A stretch of 64,000 nucleotides of DNA from Nemertoderma westbladi. Taxonomy: Eukaryota > Animalia > Xenacoelomorpha. The notes beneath the pieces were generated by a model. It saw only the letters and a list, made by a program, of their open reading frames with translations, did not search any database and was not told where the DNA came from. Below are positions 1,009 to 33,629 of this stretch, in pieces (the stretch's first letter is position 1; every line of letters starts with the position of its first letter). The stretch is taken from the NCBI GenBank assembly GCA_032718475.1, contig JAUCBJ010005734.1, forward strand, positions 1 through 64,000, written 5' to 3'. A program made the translations under genes and the position numbers.

Positions 1009-1024
1009 CACGGTCGGGGTTATA

Positions 1025-2323: not shown

Positions 2324-2358
2324 TGTTTACATAATTATACTGAAGTGTTTATTGGGCG

Positions 2359-5709: not shown

Positions 5710-5725
5710 CACGGTCGGGGTTATA

Positions 5726-6987: not shown

Positions 6988-7024
6988 GTGCTGATGATGC
7001 CCCAAAGGGGAGAAATTAATCCAC
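6988..7024 (+). ncRNA. Minimal hammerhead ribozyme, second copy
   Basis: Identical to 2287-2323. Confidence 0.85.
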
Positions 7025-7094
7025 TGTTTACATAATTATACTGAAGTGTTTATTGGGCGATGAAACTCCTTGTTGTTTTAATAACTGTCACGAT

Positions 7095-10000
7095 AAACGA
7101 TTGTGCTATAACTGCCTCAGGCGAGGACATCAAAGGAAAACCTGTTACTCCGACGCGAGGTGTGCTAAGTGTGGCGCGAAACATCATATCTTGCTGCATA
7201 CCGAGTTTGATAAGACTCGGACGAGCCAGGTGAGTGAGCCCGAACTACATGTACAATTCAGTGATGTGAATGACACTGACCATAATTCGGAGATGGAAGG
7301 ATTCTACACAGATGAATTTTCTGACGAAAATGAATCCTGTTATATGGTCAACATAACCATATATCAAGCACTTACGTATGAGACCGAAACGGAGGGAGAA
7401 GACCACCGACTGTCTATTCTGGATCGACAGCTCTCATGGAAAAGTTCAACACCATCTGTCGGTATCCAAGAGTTCCCCATGGTGCAACTGAGAGTACATG
7501 GAATAAGGAAGAGCTTAATAGTGAATGCCCTCCTTGACTCCGGCAGTACAGGCACCTTTATTGACAAACACCTAGCCGAAGATATCTTTGTTGGTCAACC
7601 AAAGTTCCGAACCAAACTGAACCTTTCCAGGATTATGCAGGTTTGGAAATCCATGGTATCAACCGACTACTACGTTGGATCATTGTCTACTCCCCAAGAT
7701 GAACTAGTTGAGAATAGTGTAAGGTCAGTTAAAATGGTGGCTATAAAGAACTTTGCTACTAGCCAAGTGGAGCCTTACAACTGGGATGAAGACCATTTTA
7801 CCCAGCAATATAATATACCTAGATTCAGTACCGATTATCCAGGAGTACAGATACTACTCGGCCAAAACACGCACGAGGCGCTTGAGACAATAGAAAAACA
7901 GCCTGCTCGACCGCAACCACTCCAGACCTACACGGGAAGAACGAGAGTAGGTTGGTACTTCACGGGACCTTCCCACAGGACTTTGCAAGAAAGACTTCCG
8001 AGAGAGCAAGTCCATCAGGTAAGTGAGTGTGAGGAAAACCTAAGTGAAGAGGAGATCCCAGCTGAGGAAACCCCATGCTCCTCAGATAACGATGGTATAC
8101 AGATTCTGTATGATGAGGAGAATACTATTGAACTTCTCACTGAGAATCAAACTTGGTCAAACCAAGTTAATTTGTGTAACCTTATCTGTCAAAACAGCGA
8201 ACGAATGACTTACGACGACGAACTAAATGAAGCGGTAGAGCAGTACAATAGTAAGATACGTGATGAACACACAGTACGATTCTTTACTCAAGAAGCTGTA
8301 GAGCCTAATTCCTACGACAAAGCGTTATCCGTCAAGGAAGAGAGAGCCAAGCAGATTCTGGAAACGACTACACGTTATCTGAAAGAGTAGGGTCGTTATG
8401 AAATTGGTCTGCCTTTCAGACGGAGAGAACCCAGCTTCGTTAATAACCGACTTTTAGCGGAAAAAAGAATCGCACAACTACATCGGCGTTTGACGGCTAA
8501 CGATCGAGCCAAAGAGATGTATAAGACTCAATTAAAGAAGTTCATAGACAAGGGGTACGCGGAGCGAGTTCCAGAAGAAACACCCATAACGGAGAGAACG
8601 TATTACTTGACACATCATTACGTTTCCAAGCCGGTAAACCAAACAAAGTCCGTGTAGTGTTTGACGGCTCCGACCTTTATATGGGACAATCCCTAAATTC
8701 AGAACTGTTACCGGGACCCAACTTACTCCAATCTTTGTTGGGAATATTATTACGACTGTGGCAATATTCAATAGCCTTCGCTTCCGACATTGAAGGCATG
8801 TTTCGACAAGTTAAAGCGTTAGCTAGGGATCGAGATAGCCTACAATTTCTGTGGTAGCCTGAAGGAGACCTCAACCGAAAACCGGTGGAGTACTGGATGA
8901 CAATCCAGGCTTTCGGGATCATATTGAGCCCCTCGAACGCTTGTTCGGTAGTGCGCACCACTGCCGATGATAATAGAGACGCCTTCTCTAAAGAGGTTAT
9001 CGATAACATTAAACGGGATATTTACATGGACGACAATCTAAAGTCCCTCCCATCGGTAGAAGAAGCAATCGATGTTACCAAGGGAATGGTAGAGTGCTTA
9101 CAATGCGGTGGATTTCGCCTAACCAAATTCACTAGTAACTCCCGTGAGTTCCTGGAATCGATCCCAGTAGAAGACTGAGGTGTTAAAGACCTTGACCTCA
9201 TTAAGGACGATCTTCCAGAAACCAAGACTCTTGGACTGAAATGGGACACGGAGAGAGATATTTTATTATTTCAACTGAAGCAACGAGATTAGTAGAAATT
9301 AGATTAGCAGTTAGAAATAAACGGATTTGTCTGAGTATTCTGAGCACTTTCTTTGATCCGTTGGGATTCATTAGCCCAGTCATACTATTTGCTCGGAGCT
9401 TAGTACAACAAATATGGCTCGAAAACCACTCCTGGGATGATCCACTCAAGGGAGAACTGCTAAAGAAGTGGATGAAATGGGAGGATTCTTTTCCATCTAT
9501 CGAGAACTTTAAGATTTCCCGCTCGTATTTCGGCCACGTTCTCCCCACGTATTCCTATCAACTCCATGTTTTTGGAGATGCCAGCGATATTGGAATAGGT
9601 ATAGTAGCCTACCTGAGGGTTGAAACTCCCGATGGAATTAAAGTTTCATTATCCGCCTCCAAGGCCCTAATAAACAACAAACTGCAGGTTCCCAGAGCGG
9701 AGTTAAAGGCGGCTCTATACGCTACAGCCATTGGCCGGAATGTAACGGAACAGATCGACTACCCACTAGCGAAAACTGTCTATTGGACTGATGCTTTACT
9801 CATTCTGGAGTATATCACTAATGAAGTCTGTCAGTTCAGCGTCTTTGTTACCAACAGAGTAGCCATTATACTCAGTCACTCTAATATAGATCAATGGAGA
9901 CATTGCCCTGGGACGATTAATCCAGCCGACATCGCTTCCAGAGGAACAACTCCTCAAGAATTGATAGATACTCCAGACTGGTTAGGTGGACCCGACTTCC

Positions 10001-11380
10001 TAGGTAAAGAAGAGGAGGAATGGCTCCCTCATCTCACCACAGGGGAGATTAGACAAGCCAAGGGAGCAGAGAAAGGTAAACCGAAAACCCGGACGAGTAA
10101 ATCAAAGCTGTTTAAGCCAGCGATAGATCTGTCTGTTCTACACAACGCCGGTGATGCCACTGTGGATCTAAATTCATACATGGATGTTACTCTAACTATA
10201 AATAAATCCATTATAGAAATAAGGGAAAGAGACTGGAAATATGGAACACCAGACGTCTCCCAAGGACTCTCTCCTCTCATACACTGGAATCGGCTTTGCA
10301 AAGCCATTGTGTATTTGAAAAGATATTTCCATCATCACTATTCCAGGATGAAGATTGCTAATGATATCGCTCCAGTAGTAGCTGAAAAGGTCCATGCTAC
10401 TAAAGACCTTCCCACTTATCGGCTGCCTGATAGGTTTCTGACTGAGAAGATCAGTTACCAAGAACATGATGATACTAACAAGCAGATACTGAGACTCCTA
10501 CAATGTTACGAGGATTCCGATAAGTATTTCCTGTTGTTAAGAAATCCACAGATGCGCTTAAGGGATCGTTTCTCTAGCACAATGATAGATGGGTTAATAC
10601 GTGTCGGAGGGAGATTAACCAATGCTCCATTGTTCTTTGACACTAAGTTTCCCATACTCATTAGAAATCTTGAAATACAAATCAAGATGATTGTAGATGT
10701 TCACAGTAAGCTTTACAACGCTGGTAGAGAACGAGTTCTTAACGAAATTTGAACTCACTATTATTTCCATAAGCCCCATAGAGCTCTAAACCAAGTTCTT
10801 AGGAACTGTATACCCTGTAGGAAAGCATTTAGTAGGCCTTTAACACAGCGAGAGGCAGAATTACCTAGGGAACGAGTAAGCTGTTATGAACCACCCTTTA
10901 CTAATACTGGTGTAGATTTATTTGGCCCTATTGAAGTATATCGTGCTAGGACTATAGTCAAGCGATGGTGCGTCATCTTTGTCTGTAGAGCTTGTAGAGC
11001 GATCCATCTCGATATGGTGAATGATCTATCTACCAACAGCTTCATACTGAGTTTACGCCGACAAATCGCTCGTTTTGGGACTAGCAACATTTCATTGGCG
11101 CCAATAACGAGATCAAAGCTTATGTGAAGGATTGGAACCAAAGACAGGTGGACGATCAGCTAAGAATAACAGCATCTAGCTGGATCTTCAACTTTGGTTG
11201 GTGGTTGGTGGGGAGGAAGTTGGGAGAGACTCATACGTAGCATAAAGACCGCATTTCACTTTATAGTGCCGTGCAGCGCGTATCTCACCGACGAACTTTT
11301 GCGTACGTTAATGGAGGAAATCGCCGCCTATCTCAACGAGAGACCGCTTATGCCAGTCTCATCGAGTCCCGACTCCCTAG
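7095..11380 (+). pseudogene. BEL/Pao element A gag-pol (Zn knuckles, protease, RT, RNase H, truncated integrase), decayed
   Basis: CYNCLRRGH..C..C..H, LLDSGS, YMDD, FDPLG, VFGDAS, NPADIASRG, TGVDLFGP, GGSWERL; many stops and frameshifts; domain order PR-RT-RH-IN. The 5' part is displaced by the PLE array. Confidence 0.92.
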
Positions 11381-11898
11381 AATATATATATATAATATTT
11401 GATAAATATTTACAACGTTTGTTATAACAAATGTTAAAATAGAGGAAATGCTAACAAATCTGTTAAACCTTTAGATCCTCTAAAATTTTAGTCGATTAAG
11501 ATATCGTAGTACTTACCGATACTTTTAAAAGACAAATTTCTGGAATTAAGGATCCTAGTCCCCAGACATGTTCTGGAATAAAACTATGTCTATTTACAGT
11601 ATACAGGACTGGGCTATTTTCCGTGCACCAGGACTGGGGGGGGGGGGGGGGGTTGATTCCACCCTCCCTTCCATTTTGGATAATTACAGGCCATTTTTTT
11701 TTAAAATTGGTAGTAATGTGAAAAAATAAATACCTAGCTCGTGTGTGATAAAAAATTTTATTTTCGAGTTATGGGTGGCACCGAAACGGCACTTTTCATG
11801 CACCCACTAAAAAAAATAAAATTTCAGTAAAACAAGTCAAAAAGTCACTTTCCGCCCGGTTTTATGGGTTTTCGACCCCACTGAATCCTACCTGATGG

Positions 11899-12980
11899 TC
11901 CTATCTGCTACCCGGAGGTAGGGGTGGGCGCTACTCCTATCTGCTACCCGAGGGTAGGGGTGGGTGCTACTCCTATCTGCTACCCGGAGGTATGTGTGGG
12001 CGCTACTCCTATCTGCTACCCGAAGGTAGGGGTGGGTGCTACTCCTATCTGCTACCCGGAGGTAGGGGTGGGTGCTACTCCTATCTGCTACCCGAGGGTA
12101 GGGGTGTGCGCTACTCCTATCTGCTACCCGGAGGTATGTGTGGGCGCTACTCCTATCTGCTACCCGAAGGTAGGGGTGGGTGCTACGCCTATCTGCTACC
12201 CGAGGGTAGGGGTGGGCGCTACTCCTATCTGCTACCCGGAGGTATGTGTGGGCGCTACTCCTATCTGCTACCCGAAGGTAGGGGTGGGTGCTACTCCTAT
12301 CTGCTACCCGAGGGTAGGGGTGGGCGCTACTCCTATCTGCTACCTGGAGGTATGTGTGGGCGCTACTCCTATCTGCTACCCGAAGGTAGGGGTGGTGGCT
12401 ACTCCTATCTGCTACCCGGAGGTAGGGGTGGGCGCTACTCCTATCTGCTACCCGAATGTAGGGGTGGGCGCTACTCCTATCTGCTACCCGAAGGTAGGGG
12501 TGGATGCTACTCCTATCTGCTACTCGAAGGTAGGGGTGGGTGCTACTCCTATCTGCTACCCGAGGGTAGGGGTGGGTGCTACTCCTATCTGCTACCCGAA
12601 GGTAGGGGTGGGTGCTACTCCTATCTGCTACCCGGAGGTAGGGGTGGGCGCTACTCCTATCTGCTACCCGAAGGTAGGGGTGGACGCTACTCCTATCTGC
12701 TACTCGAAGGTAGGGGTGGGCGCTACTCCTATCTGCTACCCGAGGGTAGGGGTGGGCGCTACTCCTATCTGCTACCCGAGGGTAGGGGTGGGCGCTACTC
12801 CTATCTGCTACCCGGAGGTAGGGGTGGGCGCTACTCATATCTGCTACCCGAAGGTAGGGGTGGACGCTACTCCTATCTGCTACTCGAAGGTAGGGGGTGG
12901 CGCTACTCCTATCTGCTACCCGAGGGTAGGGATGGGCGCTACTCCTATCTGTTACCTGAAGGTAGGGGTGGGCGCTACTC
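11899..12980 (+). repeat. 36-bp G-rich minisatellite (~30 copies)
   Basis: Unit CCTATCTGCTACCCGRAGGTAGGGGTGGGYGCTACT. Confidence 0.97.
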
Positions 12981-13040
12981 GCCCCTACATGGACCATATA
13001 TTATACGCATATGGCTACATATATTTTTTAGAAGCACCCA

Positions 13041-13400
13041 AATTTGAAATTTTCATGCCGCACCCACTTCTAGGATCCCCCGAAAAATACCATCCCACTT
13101 GTCTGTGACATCTATCTATCGGTCAAAATCGATTCAGCGACCTCGAAAACCTTTGTACACAGAAAATTGACCTTTGGAAATGTGTACTATTGAAAGTGAA
13201 AATTTGAAATTTTCGTGCCGTACCCACTTTTGTAGGACTCCCCGAAAAATACCATCCCACTTGTCTGTGACATCTATCTATCGGTCTAAATCGATTCAGC
13301 GACCTCGAAAACCTTTGTACACAGAAAATTGACCTTTGGAAATGAGTACGATTGAAAGTGAAAATTTGAAATTTTCGTGCCGCACCCACTTTTGTGGGAC
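13041..13400 (+). repeat. ~161-bp direct tandem duplication (2.2 copies)
   Basis: AATTTGAAATTTTC.TGCCG.ACCCACTT at 13041, 13201 and 13363. Confidence 0.9.
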
Positions 13401-14571
13401 CCCCAAAAAATGTATTCAGGGAAGTTTTGACGTAAAATGGACACCATTGTTCGATTCGGTATACCAAAAAACCTTTATAAACGAGAAACTGGCTGACAAC
13501 ATCAATCCTTTCAAAAGTTGCAAATTTTAGCTTGAAAAGTGCTGACATGTGTTTTTTACACCCCCTATAACTCGACAACTAACAGAGCTATAAAGTTCTC
13601 GTTTTTTTTGTGAGATTCAGAGATAAATTTTAGGAAAACTCAGGAAATTTCAGCTTACTGCGATCAGTGCTTCTGCGCAGATCAGTAGATAAACTTAAGG
13701 GGGGGGGGGGTGGATTCAACCCCCCCCCCCCCCCCCCCCCCCAGTCCTGTAACGGTTAATATCAAATAATAAAATTCACGGGAATAAATTATAAATTCAT
13801 ATCCTCTCATGAATTTAATAAATTGTCATTTTATACAATTTATAAACATTCCCAAAATTCCGTTAATTAATAGATCATGGGAGCGGAGATTCACCCTATT
13901 AAGTATATCAGTGTGAGAGTATCTCCAGTGTATAGTCAATAGCCGATAAAATTCATAAAATCATGTATAAAGGGAATATTGACAATTAAAGAGTCACTAT
14001 TAAATAGCATCCCAGATCTGTATGCATGAGAAATACCCTAATTCTACCGCTAGCTTTGCATAATGTCACCATAGTAACAACCACGCTAGAATTAGAAGTG
14101 AGTTAAAAGAACAATAGAAAGCTTGCCCCATTGAATAGCATGCGTAATAAATAGCACTTGCTAGTATCTAGGGATACATAATAATAACGTGGCATTCTGG
14201 AAGGCATCTGACTAACGGACAAATGGCCCTAATTTGTACAAATTGTGACAGGAATGTGGAATTTGTGTATTTATAGGTGAATATTGCTACTAAAGTGTGT
14301 TTACAGCGAGTAAGCGAGTCGCAATTGTGAAAATTACCTTACATCTGTATCAAGTACCTCCAGTATATTCAAACCTTTGGGACGGACAGTGGAGTGACTC
14401 GCGCTGGTTATTGTTGTCGTTGTGTGGCTACTACATTGGCGAGTGGCACAGCGACGACAGTACATCAGCGCTGAGGATCTCAGGGATGTCCGGGGGCAGA
14501 GAGGGGAAGGCAGCGACGCCCGCTAGCCTTATTATTATTAACTATAATATCGATAAACTCATATAGCAGCT

Positions 14572-15190
14572 ATGACTGAGTTGATAGAAGATGATCTTGG
14601 TATTTGGGAGCGATATACCCTACCACTGCAAGCATTTGTTGATAGTTTGATAAGCGGCGACGGAAGACACACGACGGAAGACGATGGCCATTATATCGAA
14701 CCGCCAATATCAAAGGAATAGCTCAAGCATGAATTGGACTATAGAAAATTAACCGCTCACTATACGCATCGTAATGGTACGTATATGGACCTCTTAACTG
14801 CTGGTCATCCTATCGATTTACACGATATGGACGATGTAGACACCGAAAGGGAAATGATTATATTTAAATATCATGCCCAGCGAAGTCGGAATGATCAACT
14901 GAGAATTGAACATGAAAATTATATTCGAAACCGACTCGAAAGAGAAGATGTTGAAGAACCGGACAAACGTAATGACTTTAACAAATATTTAGAGTTCTTG
15001 AGAGAAACTTATCTCAATGTAGCTAGTCAGCAAAATCTCGAAACTCGATATCCTCAAGTTATACATCACAACCCTATGATGGAGCTTAAACGACTCTATT
15101 TTACTATGATGTATCTTACCGCCGATCGACCACTACCTGTTGTACCGGATAGCTTCGAACAGATGGAGGAATATTGTAAAACTGGAGAAT
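14572..15190 (+). pseudogene. N-terminal part of extra 3' ORF (ORF3) of BEL/Pao element A
   Basis: ATG 14572, in-frame TAG 14719. ELKRLYFTMMYLTADRPLPVVPDSFEQMEEYCKT aligns with EISRLYHTMQYLKAHEPMPAVRDEFDGMHLYRRT of element B ORF3. Confidence 0.8.
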
Positions 15191-16689
15191 GATCAAGCCG
15201 CTCAAGTTTGCCCTTAGCAGTGCGGCCGAGCGGTCGCCCCGGCAGACGCGACACCTATCGATCATTTCAGAATTCACGACGGACCTGCAGCACGTCTCCG
15301 GCAAGGACAACATGGTCGCAGACGCTCTCTCCCGCTCGGGGGACCCACCATGCTCCATCGACATGCCGCGCTCCGTCGCCGCCCTTCTCTCTCCCGCCGT
15401 GGAATTCGCTGCGCTCGCCGCAGCGCAACGGACGTCCGCCGAGATCGTCGCCTACCGCACCACCGTCACTGGCCTCCGCTTCGCCGACATCCCGTTCGGC
15501 GACACCACTGTGCTCTGCGACATCTCCACCGGCAAGGAGCAACCCGTAGTGCCCATCGAATGGCAGGGCCGCATCTTCGAAACCATCCACGGGCTGTCAC
15601 ACCCGGGACCCCGCCCCACCATCTGGGCGATCTCCTCCAAGTTCGTTTGGCACAACTTGAAGCGAGACGTCAAACGTCGCTGCGACGAATGCCTTGCTTG
15701 CCAGTCGTCCAAGGTCGCCTGTCACGTTCGGGCTCCCCTCGTCAGCCGTGCCGCCCCCGACAACCGCTTTGAGAACCTCCACGTCGACTTGGTCGGCCCC
15801 CTCCCATTGTCCGAAGGGAACACATACCTCTTCACTGTCATCGACCGGTTCAGCCGCTGGCCGGAGGCGCTCCCACTCGCCGACGCCACAACCGCCACGT
15901 GCGCACGTGCACTCCCACTCCCGAAACGGCTGGATCAGCCGTTTCGGGGTGCCCACACCCATCACCTCCGATCGCGGCCCCCAGTTCACTTCGCACCTCT
16001 GGACGGAGTTGAACAAGCTGCAGGCGAATGGGATGGTCGAGCGGCTGCACCGCCAGCTCAAGGCCGCACTGAAGGCCCGACTCACTGGACCCGGGTGGAT
16101 GGACGAGCTTCCCCTGGTGCTGCTGGGCATCCGCACTTCGTGGAAGGAAGACCCAGAGTGCTCTCTGGCGGACATAGTTTACGGCACCAAGCTGCACGTT
16201 CCCGGCGAGTTCGTCGAGCCCGCCACATCCGCCGTTTCACCCCCGTCGTCGTCCTTCGTCGCCGACCTCCGCGACCGCCTCCGCTCGTCCGCCCTGCCGC
16301 CGGCGTATCATGGCTCACCGACATCCACCTCTCTGCCGCCGCAGTTGACTACGGCCTCTCACGTTTTCGTGCGCCGTGGCACCCGCTGCGGCCCCCTCGA
16401 CCGCCCGTACGTTGGCCCGTACCCGGTTGTCTCCCGCCACGCGAAGCACTTCGTGGTGGACCTCGACAGCCGCGAGAACTCCGTCTCCATCGACCGGCTC
16501 AAGATCGCCCACATACCAATGGCTGCATCAGGTCTACTTCCCCCTGTCACGTACGCCCACGCCGCAGCTTCGCCACCTTCGCCCCAGCCCATCGCGTCAT
16601 CGTCCACGCCGCCGCTGATCCCGGACTTGGCCAATTTCTCCCAGTTCGGCCGCCGCCTCCGCCCACCGGCCACCTTCTCTCCGGGCTGA
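15191..16689 (+). pseudogene. Ty3/Gypsy pol 3' half (RNase H end + integrase), frameshifted near 15920
   Basis: KPL...HVSGKDNMVADALSR, H..H/C..C zinc motif, HVDLVGP, SDRGPQF, ANGMVER, GPY motif; GC-rich. Confidence 0.92.
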
Positions 16690-16717
16690 TCGCGTTTGCA
16701 CGCTGGAGGGGGGGTTA

Positions 16718-16859
16718 TGTAGGGTAGAGACTTCGGCGGGATATTCAAACTCTCTATCTACCTTTGACTCAGATAACATTTCACTTTACCGGTACAGTTC
16801 TCTTGTTATCATTTCGCAAACAACTCTACTATAAGATTATACTATCGTTGACCGCTACA
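16718..16859 (+). repeat. Gypsy 3' LTR (142 bp)
   Basis: PPT GGAGGGGGGG immediately upstream; termini TGTAG...CTACA. Confidence 0.8.
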
Positions 16860-17066
16860 CACGCACTGTTAGTAGGCCAACTTTCAGATAAGACTCAAGG
16901 ATTATATAGTTTCTCTAGTCGCTTCCTACTGTCTGTATAGAATTATATTCTCATAAATGCCGTGGATTTTCAAAATTTTATTTTGTTCGAATTAACTTTG
17001 CTATAAAGATTACATTAAGTCCTCATTTGTATTTACTATATCTATTTGTACGATGATTATTCGAGT

Positions 17067-17150
17067 GGTTCAGTAGCTCAGTCGGTAAAGCGTTGGAAAT
17101 TATATGTAGTAGGTATCGAGTTCGAATCCTAGTAGGTGCGAATTATTTTT
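17067..17150 (+). promoter_or_regulatory. tRNA-derived Pol III A/B-box cassette inside 5' LTR
   Basis: A box TAGCTCAGTCGG (17074-85), B box GTTCGAATCC (17120-29), T5 run (17146-50). The acceptor stem does not pair. Confidence 0.7.
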
Positions 17151-17216
17151 GTGCTAAGTTTCAACTCATTTAAATTAACCGCTACAAATTAAATTGCATT
17201 TGCTCGAAGTAGATTA

Positions 17217-17365
17217 ACCAATGGGATTGCAGTTATTAGATAGTAACCAATGTCGTGCAAGTTATATATTCGCTGGACCAATAGTTATCTTTAAAAACCT
17301 ATTAGAACTCATAGAACAATCGAGAATTTTCTCGATTGATTGCAGCACAAATTTGCTATAAAAGG
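17217..17365 (+). promoter_or_regulatory. Candidate Pol II promoter in LTR (3 CCAAT boxes ~30 bp apart + TATA)
   Basis: ACCAAT at ~17217, 17246 and 17277; GCTATAAAAGG at ~17355-65. Confidence 0.55.
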
Positions 17366-18832
17366 TGCGATTTGTTCATTAGTTATTAGTATACATCATT
17401 ATCATTCTTGCTTATCCTAATATATAACTTTACTAGATTATCACTTATTAGTTATCTATTAGTTTCTTGTTACGTTTACGTATATCTTTTGTAATAAAAG
17501 TTAGAAATACTTGTTACATCTGCCCTTTTCCTATCATGTTTTACCACGGTGAACTTAACTGAGGGACAGGATGGCAGGCTAAACATCGGGCCACAGCGAT
17601 GAACGGGAACATCTGAGGAATGTAGAAGGAGACAACCCGCAATATCATTCTTAGTTATTCGCCCATCGCCTGAAAGGTTAGACAGCGTTCAATGCCTCGC
17701 TACCTAAGTGTAAGACCAAAGATCGAAGGTAGAGGTAGTGACACGCTGTGCGCTAAAATTTACATGTAGGGACTGTACTGTCTTAATTCAGAGAAAAAAC
17801 CCGCAGTAGACCTTCATATTCCTACGGGGGGAGAGGAGATCAGGCAGAGATACTAGTACACAGATAGGACGCAGGCACACCGGTACAAGGCATACACATT
17901 GGTAGGGTGCAGCAAACTGTACGCCTAACTCTTGCTAAGTATAGGTGCGTCTGTGACTGTTTGTAGTACAACGGTGTCCATTGCATTTGAACTTGTAGGC
18001 TAGAAGGGTTACTGTGTTTTACCTGAATTAGGATTGTACCGTTCAGGCGGTAGGGCAGTTTACAACTAGGCGCAAATAAATTGAGGCTATTTAGGGATAC
18101 TAACATCTACCGTGTCCCCACCAACACGTACCCATCTAGGCAACCAAAATTCTAGATAAGAACACCAGGCTAGCTATTAGTAACAGTACGCCTACTGTAG
18201 TAAACTAACACATTTCTTCTTAGTATTAGGGACCTGGTAAATTAAATTGCCGAATTCTGGGCGTAGTATTAACCTTATGCCTGAATTTGAGTCCTGGAAA
18301 TACACAAAAGGGGAAGGAGCCTTATCATTCGTGAGTATTGGACCTACAAGTTACAAAATTAGAATATTTGTAAAATGCACACCGGACCCAGTAATTATAT
18401 ATGTGAAGGAGCAAAACTGACTTTGACTGTTTAGAATCAAGACACGCGCGCGTTAGAAATTATTTACACCTCAAAATATATAAAATTAACTTTTGTCCGT
18501 ACTGCGCTTTGCCCGCTAGTTAGACATCTCTGCACCTAGCTAGCATCTCTCTATCCCAACCATATAAATCACACCGCGGCAAAGTATACGAGCCCCTTAG
18601 TCCATCAGTGAGTCAGCCTGATTTTAGGATTCGCTGCGCGGGATTTTGTTTTATCGAAGTTTGTCCGTTCGTAGACTGTTTTCTGCCTCACCGGTTATAA
18701 GAGACAAAATACTGCAATATATATTCGCTTACTTTGAGTTTACTGTTTTGGTGAGAAGGTCGGATTTATGATTTGATTCACAAACTTTACAGTAAGATAT
18801 TGCAGGGTATTTTGTTACTGTCTCTTCGCATA

Positions 18833-19715: not shown

Positions 19716-22700
19716 ATGAGTGACAAACAAGACTATACGAAGAATACACAAACCGACTATGACTCATGCGACGCGGATAAGTCAGAAGCGGAAGAACCAC
19801 AGGGGAAGACTCGTGAGCCTACCGAACCTACACCGTGCGCGTCACCAGTACATCCAACGGGAGTACCGGATGCCGTAGTATGAGGCGACGGCAGGACCGA
19901 CGATTTCCTAATGTTCCCGCAACCTAGACATAGAGAAACGGACATGGTAAGTTCAGTAGGAAGCCAGGAGAGTGTAGTTAGAAGCGTCGGAGGATACATG
20001 GCGCATATTACCAGGAGTATTGGAGAGGGCCAACGCATATTAGACGAGTTAACCGCTCCGATGTCTCGGTTCGAGTTCTACACCCTCCAGGTTAGAGTAC
20101 AGAGTAAAGTACATAAGTCTGTAGATAATCTAATTGGTCTACAAGATCTAGCTAGACAGAGACAGGATATGGACACACAGTTTAGAATCCTCGAGAAATT
20201 AATGATCGCTAGGGAGAAACTGATTCAGTTTAAGACAACCGTTAGACAGATACAACAGGAACAAGCGGACCAGTTATTAGGTGAGTCGATTTCCGACGAG
20301 TTATTACAGCCCGAGGAAGAACAACTGTACCGACTGGATGGACAATTGAAACATCTGACGGATCACTTACGTATGTGCGGCGAAGACGTCGGCGATTTGG
20401 AAACCGTGCCGGAATATACGAGGGAAATTTCACCCGTACAAATCGAATCGGCACCGGGAATACTGGACCAGTCATTGGTGAGTATTCGCAGCGAAATTGG
20501 CGAGGTAAGTATAGTGACGTCAGAAATTTCTCGACAGCAACAACAGTACTATAGACAACAACGAGAAATTGAGGAACAAACTCAACTGTTAACGGTACAA
20601 GCAGCGGTAGATGAAGAGAAGCTACGCGTTGCGAATGTTGCGAGAATCTCTCATCTGCAAGAACAAGCCGAACTGGAAGCAGCTGAGATGGAAAGGTTAG
20701 AGCTAGAAATAGCACAGCGAACAGCGGCAGCTGAGTTAGCGCAACAAGCGGCAGCAGCTGAGTTGGAACGACAAATGGCAGCAGCTGAGTTGGAACGACA
20801 AGCAGCAGCAGCTGATTTAGAGCGACGAATTACGAGCAGCAGAATTGGAAGAACACAAGCGAGTTTCGGAAGCGAGAGCCGAGTTGAAAAAACGACAGAT
20901 AAAGGCTCAATCAGCTATACGACTAGCGGAGTTCGAGGCGCAACAACAACAGATGGAACAACGCGAGAAGGAAGTTAAACTTCATTTCGAACTCGAGAAG
21001 AAGGCGAGAGAATTAGCCAACGCTAAGGAAGATCTGGATCTACAAGCCCGCGATCGATCGATGAGATCTCGAGACGGACACGATCTAGACCGGTTGGAGG
21101 TAAGACATCGTCAAATTCAGGAACGAATGAAGGAAGGAAGCGTAGGAGCACCTGAGCGAGAACGGGAATTGGTTAAAGACTTATGTCAATGATTTCCGCA
21201 AGTAACTCCGATGTTCGCACTAATTACGAATAAAGGACCTGTTTCGATTGCTGGTAGTAGCAGTATATCTCCTATACACGATGCAACGGAACACAGGTAT
21301 GTTATTCCGGACAAGTTTGTACCGCCGAGAGCAATGTCATCGCCTATTCCGAGAGTTAAGGTAAGTAACCCACCGATTACCGATCGTAGTAGGTATTAGT
21401 CAGACCCACATTAATGACGACTAAACAGGTGAGTCAAACATCGACACCTAAACCTGTGACACACTACACAAACCACTTGATATTCAGGCCTTCAAGGCTG
21501 TTAGACTCAAACATTACGCGACCACGAATTCAGTTTACATCGCAATCTACGACTTCGAGGAAGACCTGCGAGCCTACCGAACAACGAAGACCAGTGGATA
21601 CGCGACCGCTTAACCAGTTTACATCGCAATCTACGACTTCGAGGAAGACCTGCGAGCCTACCGAACAACGAAGACCAGTGGATACGCGACCGCTTAACCA
21701 GTTTACATCGCAATCTACGACTTCGAGGAAGACCTGCGAGCCTACCGAATGACGGAAACCAGTAGACGATGTTCCGAAGCGGAATGTTAGAATTCGGACA
21801 ACCCAACGGACGCAAGCACGTCGGCCACCGTATCCAGGTGATAGTAGTACTTCGAGTGAATCGGATTACCCGGAACGCGAAGTGTTTAGAACAGGAGCGG
21901 CCGATGAATACAAATGCGAGCATTCAGACAATTCCTTTATAGACAATCCTCCACAAAATACACCAACACAGAAAGCGTTACAACCAATGGACGCTATCAG
22001 TACACAACAGTTCGCCGACATTCTGCGACCAGTTGTTAACAAGTTGGCTCAGATCGAGGAATGCTTGGAGGAAGTTCAAACAGATAGTTCGCGAAACACC
22101 GAATTCGAACACAATAGAAACCCGAAGGAACCTCAAAGAGTGATACCTTCAAGAAACACCTCGTATCAAAGAAAAGCGCCAAGACAGGAGAACATCAACT
22201 TGATTGCCAACCAAGGACGCGAAACTTTGAATGTAGCCGAGGAGATAGCCAAATTCGCAGCCAGACAAGGACTACAGATGCAACAACCACCTAAGTTTTC
22301 CGGTAATTCTAAACATTGGCACACGTTCATAGACTACATCGAATCTCAAATTGCGGCGTGCGCTTTTACCTCAAGGGAAAAGTTCAACTATTTGCTTCAA
22401 ACTTTGACGGGAGAACCAAAACGCTTAGCGGAGACTTCCGTTGGAGTACCAGATGCCTTCGAGTTAGCATACGATCGCTTAACTTCAATCTACGGAGGTA
22501 CAGTCAGTATGGCCAAGTCAGTGATAGAGGAACTCTGTAAGGGGGGGGGCTATTACTAAACCCGTCGACTTACTGAAGTTAGCTGACGAAATAAAAAACG
22601 CTATCACTACATTGAGATCTATTGGACAACTCGGTTACGGGAACACCCCTACAGTCCTATTAAAGATCATAGGAAGACTCCACCATCGACTTTGTCGGGA

Positions 22701-25700
22701 GTGGAGGAAGATCGAATACCAGCGGGAAGAACGGGGTGGATTCTTGAAACTGGAAGATGTGTACTTATTAATATCCAGGGAAGCGGTAGTGGAGACACGA
22801 TCCAACTACACTGACCAACACATCGTAGCAGAAGGAATCACCTTACCATCCTCAAACCGACAAAAACCCCAGACAACATCCACCAAGACGGCCACTTACG
22901 CCACATCGACAGAAACCCGACAATTTTCGGACGGTAGCCGCACCTATTGGGATCAAACAGACCAGACAACAACTGAGTGCAGATTGCCGGTTGCCAATAC
23001 TGCGAGCAGCTAGGCAAGCGGCACACCACTCACAAGTTAAGAGGTTGTCGGCTGTTTCGTGAGTTAAACTCGGAAGAACGACGGCTGCAGATACGGCCAT
23101 TGGACTCTTGTTGGCGGTGTACTCAACACGGACACGTCCGCAATGATTGTCCAAATACAGACACTTGTCCATCCTGTGGACGCAACCACGACGGTTTGCT
23201 CCATACGGACAGCCATACGCCGACCAAACGCTTCACTAGGGAACACCCAGAAGCAGCAGCGAAATGTAATACGGCCTACAAGAATCGTGAATCGAGAACG
23301 ACTCCAACGTTCGTGACGCATATTCGGGATTGTTTCCCAGAGCAATCCGGGTCTTCTGACGAAGAAACCGAGGACGACGACATATACTCAGATGGAGACG
23401 AACAACCATCGATCGCGCTTCTGACGACTGACCAACTAAAAGGTTTCAGCGTAATTCCTATTAAGATTACTGGCACCAAAGGGAGCAAAAGGATCTACGC
23501 TATTCTAGATTCAGCCTCATCTCACAGCTATGTGGATGAGAAGGTAGCTGATGTCGTGACGGATCTCCGACAAGGTAAGAACGTCAGTTACACCGTAAGT
23601 AGTATGCATGGACAACGTGCAATACCAGTGACACGAGTTAAGTTAAACTTAGACACTCTTCTTCCGAAATCGCAACACAGCGAAAAGGAGAGGTCTTTGT
23701 TACCCTTTAAGGATTTGACTTTTGCGGCCACCAAGGACTTTAGTAACCTACTGGGTCCAGTGCCGGAACAATCCCTAGAGGACCGTAAGTATTTCAGACA
23801 CCTTGGTGTACCTGAATGTCCTGTCAACTATAGATCAGTAGCAATGCTGATCGGGACGGATCAATTCAATTTACATCAAGTGTGGGAAACCAGACCATCG
23901 GTAGTCGTAGCAGGAAATGCATACGCCTGTCGAACTCCGATAGGTTGGTATACTCGAGCGCCTGTGCGCACACTAGATATAAGCGATGAGGAAGACGATG
24001 TACAAAGTACATGTAGTTTATTAACTACAACTTCAACTCATTCCTTTTCACACGACAAGGACTATACTACACTACGTTCGACAAAACACAACAACGTTAC
24101 AAGTACGACGTCTGTAGCTAATACGATAAGTCACAAAGAGCAGCCAATCCACCAGGTTAGTATAAAGATTGAGAAGGAGCGGAGTCAGGCAGAGGTTCCA
24201 TCAACGATAGATGATAACGCCGGAAGGCTTGTGAGTCTACCTCAACCAATAACTTCAACAACGCCCATCGATGAAGACGCGTTAAGAAATCATCAAGTGG
24301 AACAAGCTGCACTAGACAAGGAATTAACAGAGAAAACTATCAGGTGGTTAGAACAAGACACAGCCGAACCTGGTAGTTACGAACCATGTATGTCGGAACA
24401 AGAGAAACAATCTTTAAAGATCATGGAAGATACTATCCGCCAGACGAAAGACGGACATTATGAGGTAGGGATGCTATGGCGTAACCAACGTCCTAAACTT
24501 GCAAATAACTATCCGCTAGCCTTACGACGCTTACACTCAATACGACAACGTTTATTGAAGGACGAGAAAGCCCATCTGCAGTACAATACTCAGATGGAGA
24601 CGTATTTGACGAAAGGATACGCTATCAGAATGACAAACCCAGAGATTGTGACTGACCAGACATACTACTTGCCACATCACTACGTGAGACACCCCGATAA
24701 ACCAGACAAAGTACGTGTAGTCAATGACTGCGCGGCTCTGTTTGAGGGAATGTCTCTCAATAGTGAGTTGATGGATGGACCAAACATGAATAATTATCTC
24801 ATGGGGGTGATTATGCGCTTCCGTCAGCGCCAAGTAGCATTTACTTGTGACGTAGAAGCGATGTTTCACCAAGTGCGAGCGTTAGAGCGAGACAGAGACA
24901 GTTTGAGGTTCCTCTGGTACCCGGATGGAGACTTAAGTCAACCACCGGCGACTTACCAAATGCAAGTTCGCGTTTTCGGTGCCAGGGACAGTCCAAACTG
25001 CACTATGTACGCCCTAAAACAAACCGCTAGGGATCAGAAACATAAATATGACCCAGAGGTAATCCAAATCGTAGAACGAGACTTTTATGTGGACGATGGA
25101 TTACAAAGTTGTGACACAGTAGAACGTGCTATAACAGTAGCACATCAATTACGGGACTGTTTAGCAGGCGGAGGTTTTAACCTCACTAAGTTTGCCTCAA
25201 ACAGCGCCGAATTAGTAAATTCATTCGAAACGACTGAACGTGGGGGTGGGGACATTGACTTAGAGTTCGAACCACTGCCGACGACCAAGGTGTTGGGACT
25301 ATTTTGGGACCCGAACACAGACAACTTTCGAGTGAAAGTAAAACTGGACGCTGAAGGGGATTCTCTGACAAAGAGGTCTTGCTTGTCGAAACTAAGCAGA
25401 CTGTTCGATCCATTAGGTTTCATCAGCCCAATAATACTGCAAGCAAGAATATATATGCGCAGTATTTGGAAAGATGGACTGACATGGGACGAACCGATCT
25501 CATCCGAACAAGTGGACTTATGGAAGACTTGGGAGGCACAATTATCTTCGCTAGAGGATTATTCCATACTAGATATAGTCCGTTTTTACAGACGACATTT
25601 CCTGACAACTTAGAATTACATTGTTTTTCCGACGCCAGTGACAACGGCTTTGGTGTGACAGCGTATTTGCGCAGACAAGTAGACTCAGATGAGTTTGATG

Positions 25701-28354
25701 TATCGCTCATTACTTCTAAGGCTAAAACAATGCCTACTAAGTATATGACGACACCACGCGCTGAGCTACAAGCCGCAACTCTGTCAACGACAATTGTAAA
25801 CCTCATACAGACTGAACTACAGTCAAGTTTACAGATATTTTATTGGACTGACGCGACGTTAGTTTTATTTTATATAAACAACGACACACTTGAATTCAAG
25901 ACATTCGTAGCTAACCGTCGTGCAGAAATTCTAGACCGTTCAATAAAGGAAGATTGGCGACATTGTCCCGGACCACAAAATCCAGCTGATATTGCGTCGC
26001 GAGGAATGATGCCTGAGGAATTCTGTAAACCGGAAAACAAGAAATTTTGGCAACACGGACCACAATTCTTACAAAGAGCAACACAACATCGGGCCACTTT
26101 ACGATAACAAGTTTAATACTATTCCTAAGGACGCCGAAATTAAAAAACCAAAGAAAGGTAAAGCAAAGAAAAAGACAACGGCGAAACTTAAGAAGAAACC
26201 AAAGGCGAAATGGAAAAATATAACTTACAAAGTTAAGGCAGGAAGACTTGCGAGCCTTTCTCAACCAGACGTATCGCCAGACAGTCAACCAGACACGTTA
26301 CCAGACGGTCAACTAGACATTTTGCCAGACATGTCACTAGACGTTTCGCCGGATGTTCCGCGAAACATTTTACCAGACATTTCACAAGATGTTCTACCAG
26401 ACATTAGTAACGTAGCGACACATAGTAAAGCCGCAGTTTCCCTATTGGAGCGGCCTTCTATTGACAAACTACCAAACTTGACACCCTTGAGTAACCATAA
26501 GTACAGTGAAACCTCATGTATTACAGATGTGGGTAGTACCTACGCTAATGTAAATACAGGTGTTACTTTATGCTCAAGAGACATACCAACCTTACAACCT
26601 ACGGTGAGACCTGGGATTAATATCGGCAGAAAAACAAATTTACCGAAACCCAGCGATCCCATAGAGTTAAAACCACCATTACGAATCGACACACAAAGTA
26701 ATGACAATCAAGGTAAGAAGACAAAGAAGGACAAATTACTTGTAGACCCGGACGGATCAACAGTCAACAAGGGAATACTTACCGGCGGACTTGTGGGCCC
26801 ATCTAGTAAAACAAAACCTTCCAAATTCTCCATTGACTTACCTGATGACGTCACAAATACTTACGTCGACCGTATTGTAAATTTGACAGATTCTTGGACA
26901 AACGCATGCCGAAAATTAGCGTGGATTGTACGTTTTGTACAATACGTTAAAGGCAAACGCAACTTTACACGTCGACTCACATTGACTGAGATTGACAGAT
27001 GTGAAATTAAATTAATTCGCATTACCAATTGCGATATTTTGCACGCGAATTCACATCTATAAGTCAAGGTCAACCAATCAAGTCGTCACCAATACTGAGT
27101 TGGAGTCCGATAATTTATAATGGCTTAATTTGTCATAAATCTCGGCTTCAAAACATTGACTTTAATACTGATTTTAGATACCCGATAATAATACCACAAC
27201 ATCACGAATTACAACGTGCAATGATACTGGACGCACATTTACATCTAAAACACGCTGGAAGACACCACTGTCTTTCCTACTTACGTACAAGATTTGTATT
27301 AATTAGACCCAGTAAAGCGCTAAGTTCAGTGACACGTATGTGTCTTATTTGTAAAAAGGTACATTCTAGAATAAGTACCCAAGAAATGAGTGAACTTCCA
27401 CAAGCACGACTACAGGCATTCAGACCACCCTTCACAGAGACTGGAATTGACTGCTTTGGTCCCATACATACGAAACGTGGACGTATACTAGTAAAACGCT
27501 GGGGACTGATTTTCACATGCATGTCCAGTAGGGCAGTTCATCTTTCCACCAATGCCTTTATACTAGCATTGCGGCGATTTATCGCTAGACGCGGACTAGT
27601 GAAATGCTTGTACTCAGACCAAGGTACAAACTTCGTTGGTGCTCGAAATGAAATTGCTAGAGCCTTTAAGAAATTAGATCATGATCAAATCTCAAACGAA
27701 CTACGTCCTTACAAGATTGTTTGGAAGTTTAATCCTCCAGACAGTCCATGGAGAGGCGGAGTCTGGGAGAGATTGATTAGATCTATAAAAACAGCCATGG
27801 CAAAAGTAATTCCTGTAAACCACATCTTGACAGACAACCAACTGACGACATTGTTTGTTGAAATCGAGGCAATACTAAATACTAGACCAATAGTATTAGT
27901 ACCCGATGACAAACAATCCCAGTTTGCTTTAACACCGGCACACCTGCTGATGCAGGCACCGACTACATTAACGCCTATTTCTATTCCAATAGAAGGCGAT
28001 AGCTACGGTAGAAAAGCGTGGAAAATCACGCAACTACTAGCCAACAAATTCTGGGAAATATGGCAAAACCATTATTTGCCCTCTATTTCTGCCAGAACAA
28101 CTTGGTACAACAAAACTCGCGCTTTAAGAGCGGGAGATCATGTGCTGTTAGCAGAAGTGAATCTAAAAAGACGCTTCTGGATAACAGGTGTAATTTTAGA
28201 CACACATCCATCTATGGATGGAGTGACAAGGACTGTGACTGTACGGACAATTGACGGTCGTACAGTAGACAGACCGACTTAAAGTCTCGTACTTCTGGAA
28301 GAGACGCGAAACAAGTCTGGAGATTACAAGTCTCCAACTAATGTTAGTAAATAG
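19716..28354 (+). pseudogene. Element B gag-pol (coiled-coil Gag, CCHC knuckles, protease, RT, RNase H, integrase) with several stops and frameshifts
   Basis: PPKFSG..W..F, CWRC..GH, ILDSAS, YVDD, FSDAS, NPADIASRG, TGIDCFGP, SDQGTNF, GGVWER. Confidence 0.93.
21531..21770 (+). repeat. 84-bp in-frame tandem repeat in Gag (~2.8 copies)
   Basis: QFTSQSTTSRKTCEPTE repeated three times. Confidence 0.92.
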
Positions 28355-29016
28355 TAAGGAGTTTACAAATAGATTTCCACGTACCTGTACACTGTAGTAA
28401 ACACAGCGGTAGAATTCCATTGTCTTTATATGTGAACATTAAGGGTAGTACCCTTATGTGTCACATAGGAGCGGGATTTGTAGGTATAAGAAATGGAATT
28501 CTACTTGGAACTCACAATATTGAGACATTTTCAAAATTTTAGAAAATCCATTTGGATTTGAAAAAATTTTAAAATTTTCTCCAGTGAATAGATTTCAGGG
28601 TACAGTCGGGTGGAACTTAAAATTAGAGAAACAAGAGAACGGAAGACTCGCGAGCCTTTCTTAAATTTTAATAAAATTTACACGGTCTTGTTTCAATAAG
28701 TTACGTCAAATAATAGACTTCCCTATATTTATTACTAACTCTTGATTGCTTATTTTCTGATAATAGTTTGGGATCAAAAAGTGAGTATTTTAGACTCACA
28801 GCCAGTTTAGCCCAAATTCGTTTTTATTTCGGCAAAAAATTTTAGATAAGAAGCAGCGTGTCATTAAAGAAACCCTAGATCTTAGGCTATGGGTAGGAGG
28901 TTAGAGCATTGTCGAGCCAAAAGGGCAGACGAAAACTCTCACATCTCCTCACAACTAACAATAAACTCTGTTGTATTCCCTCTAGTAGCAATGATTATGT
29001 AACTACACTTCTAATA

Positions 29017-32000
29017 ATGGCGAAAGGGATACATGGAGAGACGAGATGGGGATATGATATCCAAGAGGAAGCAGCAGCGCCATTCGAACGATTTGGAGCT
29101 AAGGATTACACCATATTTGGAATAAAGGATTTATCAGAAAGTACAGCGAAACTCGCAAAGACCAAATATGACTCGAACGTATTAAAGAGAAGGCAAAATG
29201 CGTTAAATGAAAGAATCGAAAGTTTACGCAAAACCTTCAATGAACTTTACCCGTACGACGGTTTATGTGATACGGGAGATATTAGCGAAGATCCCGACAC
29301 CGAAATTAGTCGTTTGTATCATACTATGCAATACCTGAAGGCGCACGAACCTATGCCCGCGGTACGCGATGAATTCGATGGAATGCATCTTTACAGACGA
29401 ACTTGAGGGGACGATAGAGAAACAAAGGAAGCATTTTCAGTTTATAAACTTTATTATCAATGTGGTGCTTGTATGCGCGAACAACGAAATGCGATTCCGA
29501 TGCGTTTGAATAAGGAAAATCCCGAACCGATATTGGCGAGGTGTTCGAACCATCAACAACTACGCTACCAGGAAGGAGGGTATCCTTCATCGAATCCATA
29601 TCATTCATTCGCTATGACTGGACCAAAGGCGGGAGAAATTGTCGTTTACCCACCTAAGGTTGTTGAACCCGATGTATTTGAACTTACGCTGGACGAGGCG
29701 ACTCAGTCAACCCGCGAAAAGAAAGAAGCTCTTAGCCTATACAGAGCCTACAAGGCTTTCGAGAAAGGTGAGATGGAAGAATGGGGCGGAAGACTCGCGA
29801 GCCTACCTTACCATTGGACGTCACACGATCAAACTTCAGCTAAGGAGATGACACCGGAAGTTTTCGAGAGTATAAACTTTGCTCAAAACGTTATTCAGAG
29901 ACTACAGATTGCATCCCCGGAAAGGACAAGAGAAATGCAACCGTATAGTACTTCAACTACGAAACCATTGAGTACGACACTCAATTTCCCTATTAGTATA
30001 CCAGTTCGACAAGATACAACGTATGAAATACCTATTGTGGATCATCCGGAAATCATTTCGAACTTAGAGTTTCTTCCTGCAGTTGTTCTAAGCGATATGG
30101 TTAAGATATATGATTTACGTAGACATATTACACAAAAGGTCGTGCATAATGTCCGCCTCATATTCAAGACTTTAGGGAACTGGATAGAGCTGGCGCTGAT
30201 ATAGCTCCGAGTAACCTGAAAGGATATTTAACCAAAACAATTCGCTTATGGATTGGAACAGGAACCTTTGAGTCGGATACAGATATCGCTGCGGACTGGC
30301 AAGGTAAAGTCATTCGTTTCGAGGACGAGAAAGACATAGAGAAGATTTGGCAACCTTCGGAAGAATTATTGGATGAATGGAATAGGACGTTTAGATCTTT
30401 TCAGGAAAACGGTTACATGTTTTATGATAACGAGGGCGGCAGCCATCAGCAGAGTCTAACCTCCAAGACTATACAAATTAGAGCGGCAGACGGAGTTTTG
30501 CATGTTTTCAGTAGACAAAGGAGCGACAAGCGAATGCCGATACCTCCAGGAACTACCAAGCGGCACCATTTCATCACTAATATAGTAAAGAAAATGGACC
30601 AAGCTTGCAATATCGATGCTAGAATGTTACCAAAGATGGTGAGAAATATGATTTTAGATAAAACTGTTGTAAAGATTGGATCAGGAGTAAGAGAGGACTT
30701 AATTAGCGACTTCGCCGGCATGTCGGACAGTGACGACCAATTACCGACACCTTACGTCGACACTCGACCTCTTATACTGTGGTCTATAGAATAAGGATAC
30801 TTCCGTGAGTATGATACTCAGAAAACCGGAACTGGATACATTTCCTACTTGATGTTTAATTGGGATTACAAGGAAAGTAAAAGAACAAAGTATATCGAAA
30901 CGTATGGAGAAGGTGATACTCCAGATATAAATGAGTTTGAATCACAGCTCAAATGGAGAGGATGCGTATATTGGGCTATTACTTCACCTCCAAGAGCGGT
31001 ACTACAATATTATTTAGCGATAGAGTCATCAGTGAATGTTTGCTTAGTCGCCGACATTGTGTCTCGGACTCTTAAAAGACATCCACTTTGCCTCGGAGAA
31101 GATCATACATTCTATGCGGAAGGGAGAATTCATACCGATGTGTTTAGACGGTTTCTCGAACCCTTCTACAATTCCGACGCTCAGTGTAATGCCTTCACTC
31201 GAGCAGGATTTAGTATATTTCGAGACGTGTATCTTCGCTGTGCGGGATCTCTTATCGAAAGACCATCTACGTTTACATTGTTACCCTATGAAGGAGAACG
31301 TATCGTGGAGCTTACCGACGAATCACGGCACACGCGCGCGCCTATCGGTCACTTAGGTGATGATTTCGAAGTAACGACGACCATCGATGATCCTTTAGAG
31401 GAACTTCTTGAGATTGAAAGGAACCTCCCGAAGAAATCTCAGACGGAGATTCGACAATTAGAAGCAACAGATGCTGTAGTTTGCATACAACCTTCTGAAA
31501 CATACCAACCTATCGACCCAGACGATTACGACTATAGTGTGGGAGGAAGCGCTCGACCCATTGGCGATCTTATATATGAGCGAGTGTGGTACCCTGCTAA
31601 TACGATATGTGGTAAATGTGGCGTCGCTGGCCATCATTCGACAAAGTGCAGTGGAAAGCACATTACTACAACTCAACTAATCTGTGGATGGTGTGGAGAT
31701 CAAGGGTCCCATACATTTTATACTTGCTGGAGATTTATGGCTCAATGCACATACTGTAATATAAAGGGACACCGAGCATCTGAATGTCAATTGAGAGACA
31801 TACCTTACGAACACGAATCTGTAAAACTCGTGCGAAAACTATTTGATGATTGGGAAGATTTGGCTGATGAACATGTATCGGCGCAAAGAAGACGGTTCCC
31901 GATGAGAGCGCATCTTGGATTTTGGGCGGTAAATCCTCAAACTATGATGTCGGAAGGATATATCTCCGCTATGCCACAATATGACGAACTCATCGAGGTA

Positions 32001-32738
32001 GTTGATATTTTGCCTCACGATAGTGGATTCCGAGTTGTGCGCGAATGTTTGTTACAGATACACCCTGACAATAAGAATACATGGAATTTCCAGAAAGTCG
32101 TTAATCGTATCACGTATGGTGAATTTGATCGTTTCTGAATGGAAAAGCGGAACAAGGGAGCTTGGTTAACCGTCGCATGGGCGTACCGAGCCGCGTTCTA
32201 CCATAAACGTATACGAGCGAGCGTATTCGAGGAAGAGAAGGTCCTAGAGGCGACCAACATACCAGCTACTCCAGTCGCGCCGTCTGCACGTCACCCTCGG
32301 GAGGACGGACAGCACAGGATCATACGGGTTCAGAAAGTGGGCCAACAATTAAAGAAAACTATCAATGTTGAAGAACGAAGGGGATACGAACCGACTATTC
32401 GAATTACTCAGGATACGGTTTCGCTTCCCAGAGAACCGCAAGGAGGATCGGGACATATACCAGCTGATCAAAAGGGGGCGCAAGCTTCTCTTGGGTCTGC
32501 GTCGTCCGCTTCTCGCGCGTTCCCAGACGTTTTACCAGCGGTAGATACAACCGATCGGTCACGAGGAATTGGACGAGGATTTGGGATAACTAAGAGACGA
32601 ATATGTGAGACAATGGTCGTACCATCTCCCAACGTCCAAAGTAAACCAGTGGCTCGCCCCACAAGTCCCATATCACGAGCTAAATCACCGATACGCAGTT
32701 TTCGAGGACGTGGCAGGGCTCGATCCGCTAAGCGTTAA
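29017..32738 (+). pseudogene. Element B ORF3: novel N-terminal domain + DEDDy 3'-5' exonuclease + 3 CCHC knuckles + basic tail (3 stops, 1 frameshift)
   Basis: Reading through stops: WQGKVIRFED, YMFYDNEG (ExoI), IQIRAADG, LPKMVRNMILDKTVVKIGSGVREDL (ExoII), PYVDT, W...QYYLAIE (ExoIII-like); CGKC..GHHSTKC, CGWC...HTFYTC, CTYC..GHRASEC. Confidence 0.8.
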
Positions 32739-33620: not shown

Positions 33621-33629
33621 ATGGAGCGG
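33621..33629 (+). promoter_or_regulatory. Polypurine-tract equivalent of element B (ATGGAGCGG)
   Basis: Directly abuts the 3' LTR start TATAGA. Confidence 0.75.

Follow-up and report, generated by a model that had tools for sequence, protein, structure and literature searches.

The open reading frame (ORF) that starts at position 14572 of the window, by which we mean the whole 64,000-nucleotide stretch of DNA analysed here, appears to be the broken front of a non-envelope third gene that is common to two divergent BEL/Pao families, has been under selection at the protein level and likely encodes an RNA-binding 3′-to-5′ exonuclease. We put the probability of this reading at about one in two. 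Nested retroelements fill the 64-kb window: two Penelope-like copies, the BEL/Pao elements A, B and C, and half a Gypsy element. The third gene, ORF3, and the block that its two versions share were mapped as follows.

14572..15189, plus strand: just the 5′ portion of an element A-type ORF3 (206 codons, with a stop at residue 50, 14719-14721, and cut at the junction near 15190)
14965..15183, plus strand: shared block in A, predicted helical (helices 38-61, 76-90 and 103-112; model mean pLDDT 53)
29017..32738, plus strand: ORF3 of element B (some 1,240 codons, with stops at 29404, 30792 and 32136 and a frame change near 30200)
29191..29403, plus strand: shared block in B, from its alignment to the A block

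The A and B blocks are identical at 26 of 73 residues (36%; BLASTP E 6e-10). By tblastn within the window the block match was returned at E 1-3e-8, and the next match at E 0.12 or worse. All the letters of the motif that the preliminary description had quoted as common to the two ORF3s fall in invariant columns, and the comparison with shuffled controls that it proposed was significant: the Smith-Waterman score of the A and B blocks is 106, while the shuffles had a mean of 36 and a maximum of 65, with 0 of 3000 as high. Its remark that there is no obvious DNA identity holds for blastn, which gave no A-B match, but does not hold codon by codon. In two ungapped blocks, codon positions 1-2 are identical at 68 of 110 sites (62%) and position 3 at 15 of 55 (27%, chance 26%; Fisher P 3e-5), and 15 of the 24 identical residues are encoded by different codons. 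Third positions at chance beside first and second positions that are 62% identical indicate that selection acted on the protein. The 37-codon core of ORF3 retains 18 identical residues (49%), and its divergence equals that of the A and B pol domains (RT 85/175, RNase H 71/147 and integrase 54/103 identical, or 48-52%). Such a pattern would be expected if ORF3 and pol had descended together under long purifying selection, and the suggestion that ORF3 is old and selected is thus borne out both by the third positions and by a core as conserved as RT, RNase H and integrase.

The gene can be followed beyond the block in element B, for which we mapped the following features.

16936..18832, plus strand: 5′ LTR of element B (TA...TA ends; 13 mismatches in 1900 aligned bases against the 3′ LTR)
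19884..28279, plus strand: element B gag-pol, with several breaks (Pfam Peptidase_A17, DUF5641, Integrase_H2C2)
29461..29553, plus strand: C-x2-C-x23-C-x2-H cluster, a possible zinc site directly after the shared block (a sequence pattern with no family match)
30297..31030, plus strand: DEDDy-type exonuclease-like domain, WRN/Mut-7-like (profile scoring and motif order)
30426-30434, 30696 and 31011-31025, plus strand: ExoI D-x-E, ExoII D and ExoIII Y-x3-E motifs in B ORF3
31608..31787, plus strand: three CCHC zinc knuckles (Pfam zf-CCHC E 0.005, below cut-off)
33630..35543, plus strand: 3′ LTR of element B (LTR pairing)

Element B is complete (18,608 bases, with LTRs of 1,897 and 1,914) and is a BEL/Pao element by its Pao-type RT/RNase H, an integrase after RT, the LTR pair and a 5-base target duplication (16931-16935 and 35544-35548). 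It inserted into the 3′ LTR of the Gypsy element, which is interrupted at 16935 and resumes at 35549-35558. In its gag-pol domain order, its LTRs and the polypurine tract before its 3′ LTR it resembles the Belpaoviridae, but at 18.6 kb, with 1.9-kb LTRs and a predicted soluble third gene, it departs from their profile of 4.2-10 kb, LTRs of 0.2-1.2 kb (a typical range, not a strict criterion) and env-like third genes only (PMC8742986). B ORF3 has 1-2 stops in frame and 14-58 in the off-frames, and contains in order the shared block, the Cys/His cluster, the DEDDy-type motifs, three CCHC knuckles (two canonical, C-x2-C-x4-H-x4-C, and one with one extra residue) and a basic low-complexity tail. 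In four sequencing runs, which come from three studies, families A and B are both present in multiple copies; contig depth cannot rank copy number. Nearly all of this depth shows a different letter at two of the three stop positions of B ORF3, so these stops look private to this copy. Although the divergence between the two LTRs is only 0.7%, stops and frame changes are numerous in gag, pol and ORF3; probably the copy was defective already at insertion, or the assembly contains errors.

The middle of B ORF3 is probably a WRN/Mut-7-type DEDDy domain with D-E-D-E as its acidic residues. The order and spacing of ExoI, ExoII and ExoIII fit, a K-x-G-x4-D stretch ends at 30696, and the last acidic residue is E, not D. 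A profile was built, without the query, from 10 short WRN-like proteins with full-length matches, kept from the PF01612 proteins of 36 bacterial genomes; we take PF01612 to be the WRN-exo/Mut-7/EXD family of DEDDy 3′-5′ exonucleases. Four scoring schemes were tried. Across the six frames of the window, HMMER reported a single domain, at this stretch of B ORF3, which also supplied the top two chunks (2 of 2000 shuffles as high). Semi-global alignment gave z 4.3 (0/1000 shuffles), unrelated control segments scoring z 2.8 and 2.6 in the same test, and an insertion-tolerant profile gave z 5.7 (0/1000), the stretch taking ranks 1-2 of 1,146 window chunks with scores of 46 and 45, the next being 36. 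RNase D and Pol A profile sets reached z 2.2 and -0.5, and the DnaQ/epsilon model of NCBIfam matched at ExoI with E 0.052. The domain is like the WRN-exo/Mut-7/EXD family in its ExoI-II-III order and the K-x-G-x4-D stretch, and unlike it in having long insertions, E for the last D and a similarity below the Pfam cut-off. The N-terminal domain, which the preliminary description could not assign, indeed has no assignable relative; the rest of B ORF3, however, is readable as an exonuclease-like domain with zinc knuckles. The A copy is cut upstream of any such domain, so that for A we can only infer it; on balance, we think that the A ORF formerly ran on into exonuclease-like and knuckle domains as in B.

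These parts allow a tentative mechanism, which as a joint proposal (own transcript, RNA grip by the knuckles, 3′ trimming of silencing or decay RNAs, and docking or self-association by the front domain) we regard as possible and would not call probable. The gene would have been captured once, between an old polypurine tract and the 3′ LTR, after which it would have descended together with pol and disappeared from some lineages, C among them. It may be expressed apart from gag-pol, from an internal or spliced transcript of its own, as a soluble protein whose knuckles would grip RNA and whose predicted exonuclease would trim 3′ ends. For such a transcript the spacers offer candidate acceptors at 28575 and 28976 in B and a TATAAA at 13966 in A. 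Mut-7-type enzymes trim the 3′ ends of small RNAs. The likeliest targets would be the small RNAs or RNA-decay intermediates by which the host silences the element; the helical front domain could be a self-association or docking module, and the result would be less host silencing or decay of element RNA. If this is true, a soluble exonuclease-like third gene extends the observation made in rotifers to a second LTR superfamily and would suggest that animal retrotransposons have repeatedly come to carry RNA-trimming accessory genes, perhaps to counter silencing. The basis for this is two families in one window, both as broken copies and known here from sequence alone.

No BEL/Pao exonuclease ORF3 was found in the literature, for which mostly openly accessible papers were covered and Repbase lay outside the scope. 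An additional exonuclease-like domain may be present in some BEL elements of nematodes, and this, if real, would lessen the novelty. The third genes named for BEL/Pao in the accessible parts of four papers (PMC3118150, PMC13524379, PMC9094657, PMC2774666) are env-like only, and the main texts of PMC3118150, PMC13524379 and PMC2774666 do not contain the word "exonuclease". A DEDDy-type ORF3 is known from the bdelloid rotifer LTR retrotransposons Juno and Vesta and from Athena/Terminons (accessible text of PMC5408684; restated in that of PMC5718144 and PMC6338049). The Juno/Vesta ORF3 is the closest known kind, and the BEL/Pao case is apparently new, as no case was found in print. Like B ORF3, the rotifer ORF3s are extra ORFs behind pol with no membrane domain and with DEDDy-type motifs in which one D is replaced by E; like the present gene, they are patchy across related families, the exonuclease being known in both only as a sequence prediction (PMC5408684, accessible text). 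In contrast, the rotifer hosts are not BEL/Pao and their ORF3 is RNase D-like with DEED, while the domain found here scores as WRN-like with DEDE, a comparison made by description only; the knuckles and a front domain comparable to that of B ORF3 are not mentioned for the rotifer ORF3 in the accessible part of that paper (PMC5408684).

The main rival to the exonuclease mechanism holds that the ORF3 protein is an RNA adaptor for export or packaging, like CERV of Cer1 or Rev, in which the exonuclease fold is an RNA-binding relic and the target is the 17-base motif GGAAGACTYGYGAGCCT. Allowing up to 2 mismatches, 10 copies of this motif (chance 0.02) were located, every one of them within element B and in sense orientation.

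19804, 21559, 21643, 21727, 24222, 26241, 28641, 29788, 32760 and 33276, plus strand: GGAAGACTYGYGAGCCT copies in the leader, gag, pol, spacer, ORF3 and 3′ region

A single 84-base tandem repeat accounts for three of these copies. The motif core GGAAGAC occurs 16 times on the plus strand of the window and 0 times on the minus strand, with 13 occurrences in B, two at the 5′ end of the A ORF and 0 in A pol. An adaptor would be consistent with the ten sense-strand copies and the two cores in the A ORF, with the E in place of the last D, and with the report that inactive DEDD derivatives bind RNA (PMC5408684, accessible text). According to the accessible text of PMC10309623, CERV of the C. elegans element Cer1 is likewise a large, lineage-restricted non-env ORF situated between pol and 3′ LTR, with a helical N-terminal part and a cysteine cluster, and this ORF in env position is needed for export. 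The two differ, if by description only: Cer1 is Ty3/Gypsy, and CERV contains a domain like that of G proteins, is joined to gag exons by splicing and has been shown to export RNA (PMC10309623). Against an adaptor, the four acidic positions and the ExoIII tyrosine appear to be present, the GGAAGACTYGYGAGCCT copies have no single predicted fold in common, the motif is absent from A pol and nothing ties it to the protein. We consider an adaptor unlikely. Quite unlikely, too, is a wider proposal in which an old BEL/Pao lineage would control RNA with a system of its own, corresponding to Rev/RRE or CERV and consisting of the exonuclease-knuckle protein and the recognised sense-strand 17-base motif, and trimming silencing RNAs or licensing RNA export. 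If it were true, the front domain and the repeated motif would be a concrete candidate protein-RNA pair.

The favoured reading, a third gene inherited with pol, also depends on how the A ORF came to lie where it does. The surroundings of the ORF were mapped as follows.

7020..11380, plus strand: element A gag end and pol, broken (Pfam Peptidase_A17 E 5e-36)
11604..13749, no strand assigned: inverted-repeat element flanked by TA, which contains a 36-base tandem array and lies between A pol and the A ORF
15191..16935, plus strand: 3′ half of the Gypsy element (RNase H end, integrase, PPT, 3′ LTR start; Pfam Integrase_H2C2, rve), which truncates the A ORF

Element A is BEL/Pao by its Pao-type pol (46-52% identity to B pol, besides the Peptidase_A17 match), but it is a fragment of which no LTR remains. 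What had been described as one ORF at 14572-15189 is interrupted by the stop at residue 50, although the frame contains only this 1 stop and the wrong frames 15 and 19. At its end, about 15190, the sequence enters the middle of the Gypsy RNase H without an intervening LTR, and the junction looks as after a deletion. On the other side, both a deletion and an insertion lie between A pol and the A ORF: the integrase stops at about 11380 with its last third missing (tblastn matched only B integrase residues 31-303), and the inverted-repeat element follows. That the ORF belongs to the same element as this pol, as its earlier placing after pol implies, we think likely.

The preliminary description had also placed GGGAGCGG between pol and ORF3. 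This motif is exact in A (13879), but in B only GGAGCGG is found (28468). The copies that bear on ORF3, with the element used for comparison, are:

13880..13886, plus strand: GGAGCGG, internal polypurine-tract copy in A, 692 bases before the A ORF start
28468..28474, plus strand: GGAGCGG, internal polypurine-tract copy in B, 549 bases before ORF3
33623..33629, plus strand: polypurine tract of B, adjoining the 3′ LTR
36874..44299, plus strand: element C gag-pol, comparison element, with post-pol GGAGCGG copies and no ORF3 match

GGAGCGG occurs 10 times on the plus strand of the window and 2 times on the minus strand, with 1.9 expected per strand. It adjoins the B 3′ LTR (33623) and the likely start of the C LTR (47632), and is thus the polypurine tract. 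Copies also lie 189 bases past the B pol frame and 241 past that of C. As C has two post-pol copies (44537 and 44679) without any ORF3 match, the motif is no mark of ORF3. In a plain BEL element from a metagenome, pol is followed at a short distance by purines and, apparently, by the LTR. We infer that the internal GGAGCGG marks a former element end, behind which ORF3 was captured; the internal copy is also possible as a second plus-strand primer. In C, the stretch 44300-47630, where ORF3 would be expected, holds the two internal copies of the polypurine tract and, after them, a pair of tandem arrays (45.2-45.9 kb and 46.5-47.3 kb).

Searched with the block profile, element C gave no match, and yet it is closer to A than B is (RT 56% and IN 59% identity to A, B having 49% and 52%), so the gene is patchy, having been either lost or exchanged. 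The idea that ORF3 is a component of a BEL/Pao clade gains little from the window, where two families only carry it and the closer relative of A does not match. Exchange is the substance of a second rival, to which we again give a low probability: ORF3 would be a mobile module passed between families, the 13.8-15.2 kb fragment coming from a third family, or the front domain being joined to differing fusion partners. The absence of the gene from C fits this, as do the deletion and insertion between A pol and the A ORF, the poor alignment of the A and B N-terminal parts (130 and 58 residues), and the distribution of GGAAGAC, present in B and the A ORF and never in A pol, which would suit a B-like origin of the fragment. 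Moreover, rotifer ORF3s move between retroelement types (PMC5408684, accessible text). It is opposed by the equal A-B divergence of the ORF3 core and pol, by the AATAGAT..GGGAGCGG that the A spacer has in common with C, A's closer relative, and by the fact that, but for the insertion, the cut integrase and the motif would be only about 350 bases apart.

It is improbable that the middle domain is no exonuclease and that ORF3 is an orphan zinc-knuckle protein in which the DEDDy reading arose by chance. Curated models and structure searches did stay below significance: Pfam and PDB sequences gave nothing at cut-off for the exonuclease-like part, hhalign gave a local probability of 12% and nothing in a global run, and a single-sequence fold model of the frame had a pLDDT of 33. 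A chance fit would nevertheless have to place the motifs in order and bring the stretch, with a query-free profile, to the top of 1,146 chunks and above all of 1000 shuffles. A divergent envelope gene is scarcely credible, for in spite of the env position and the env-like genes of some belpaovirids (PMC8742986), ORF3 has CCHC knuckles, no viral fold match (with a weak model) and no membrane segment in B, where the best 19-residue hydropathy window is 1.4 or lower in all seven pieces, which argues against env. On its predicted features, B ORF3 is a third gene in the env position without envelope character.

The front domain is without a relative in protein, contig, family and structure searches. 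The collections searched hold few animal transposon proteins and the shared-domain profile consists of two damaged sequences, so that this blank is no proof of novelty. HMMER with the two-sequence profile gave 0 matches at E 0.001 among 1.84 billion protein representatives. Word-based protein searches gave 0 of 6,192 (longer) and 0 of 4,589 (near) candidates for the A+B alignment, and 0 of 2,259 (longer) for the B knuckle frame. Of 134 pattern stretches in metagenome contigs and 168 in viral contigs, none was a homologue; the integrase was also sought in the viral contigs (0/4), and a plasmid search brought up 5 chance matches (E 5-9). A BEL integrase turned up in 1 of 73 metagenome stretches; the element that carries it has pol and PPT-like purines and no ORF3 match in the 830 bases downstream. 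Pfam, NCBIfam and PHROGs gave no family match to the shared front domain, PDB sequences no relative, and Foldseek with its model (pLDDT 53) no match at E 0.001 in PDB or BFVD. VIA-align of the same model was uninformative, its best Z of 5.5 being on generic helical bundles. In the ESM Atlas, the top result for the A frame (0.92, JetA; recognition 1811) was dropped since the families disagree, and the B Cys/His frame reached 0.77 with no family match.

Several other features of the window were observed. Rfam gave 0 matches over 13.7-35.6 kb. At 17064-17140, and in the 3′ LTR copy, B has close to the LTR start a stretch that resembles a tRNA, with look-alikes of an A-box and a B-box, for which ARAGORN and Rfam returned nothing. 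Just after the B 5′ LTR, at the expected primer-binding site (18833-18930), there are three copies of GTAGGAATAT... and an inverted partner. LTRs usually end in TG...CA; the 1.9-kb B LTRs have TA...TA termini, and the likely C LTR also begins with TATA after its purine tract (47639). The two Penelope-like copies (1-7094), in which RT and GIY-YIG-type motifs were identified by eye and no Pfam match was obtained, lie in tandem, are 99.96% identical and have an intact 1,121-residue frame and 127-base repeats. Finally, inverted-repeat elements were mapped to three places, 11604-13749, 51168-51942 and 58443-59149.
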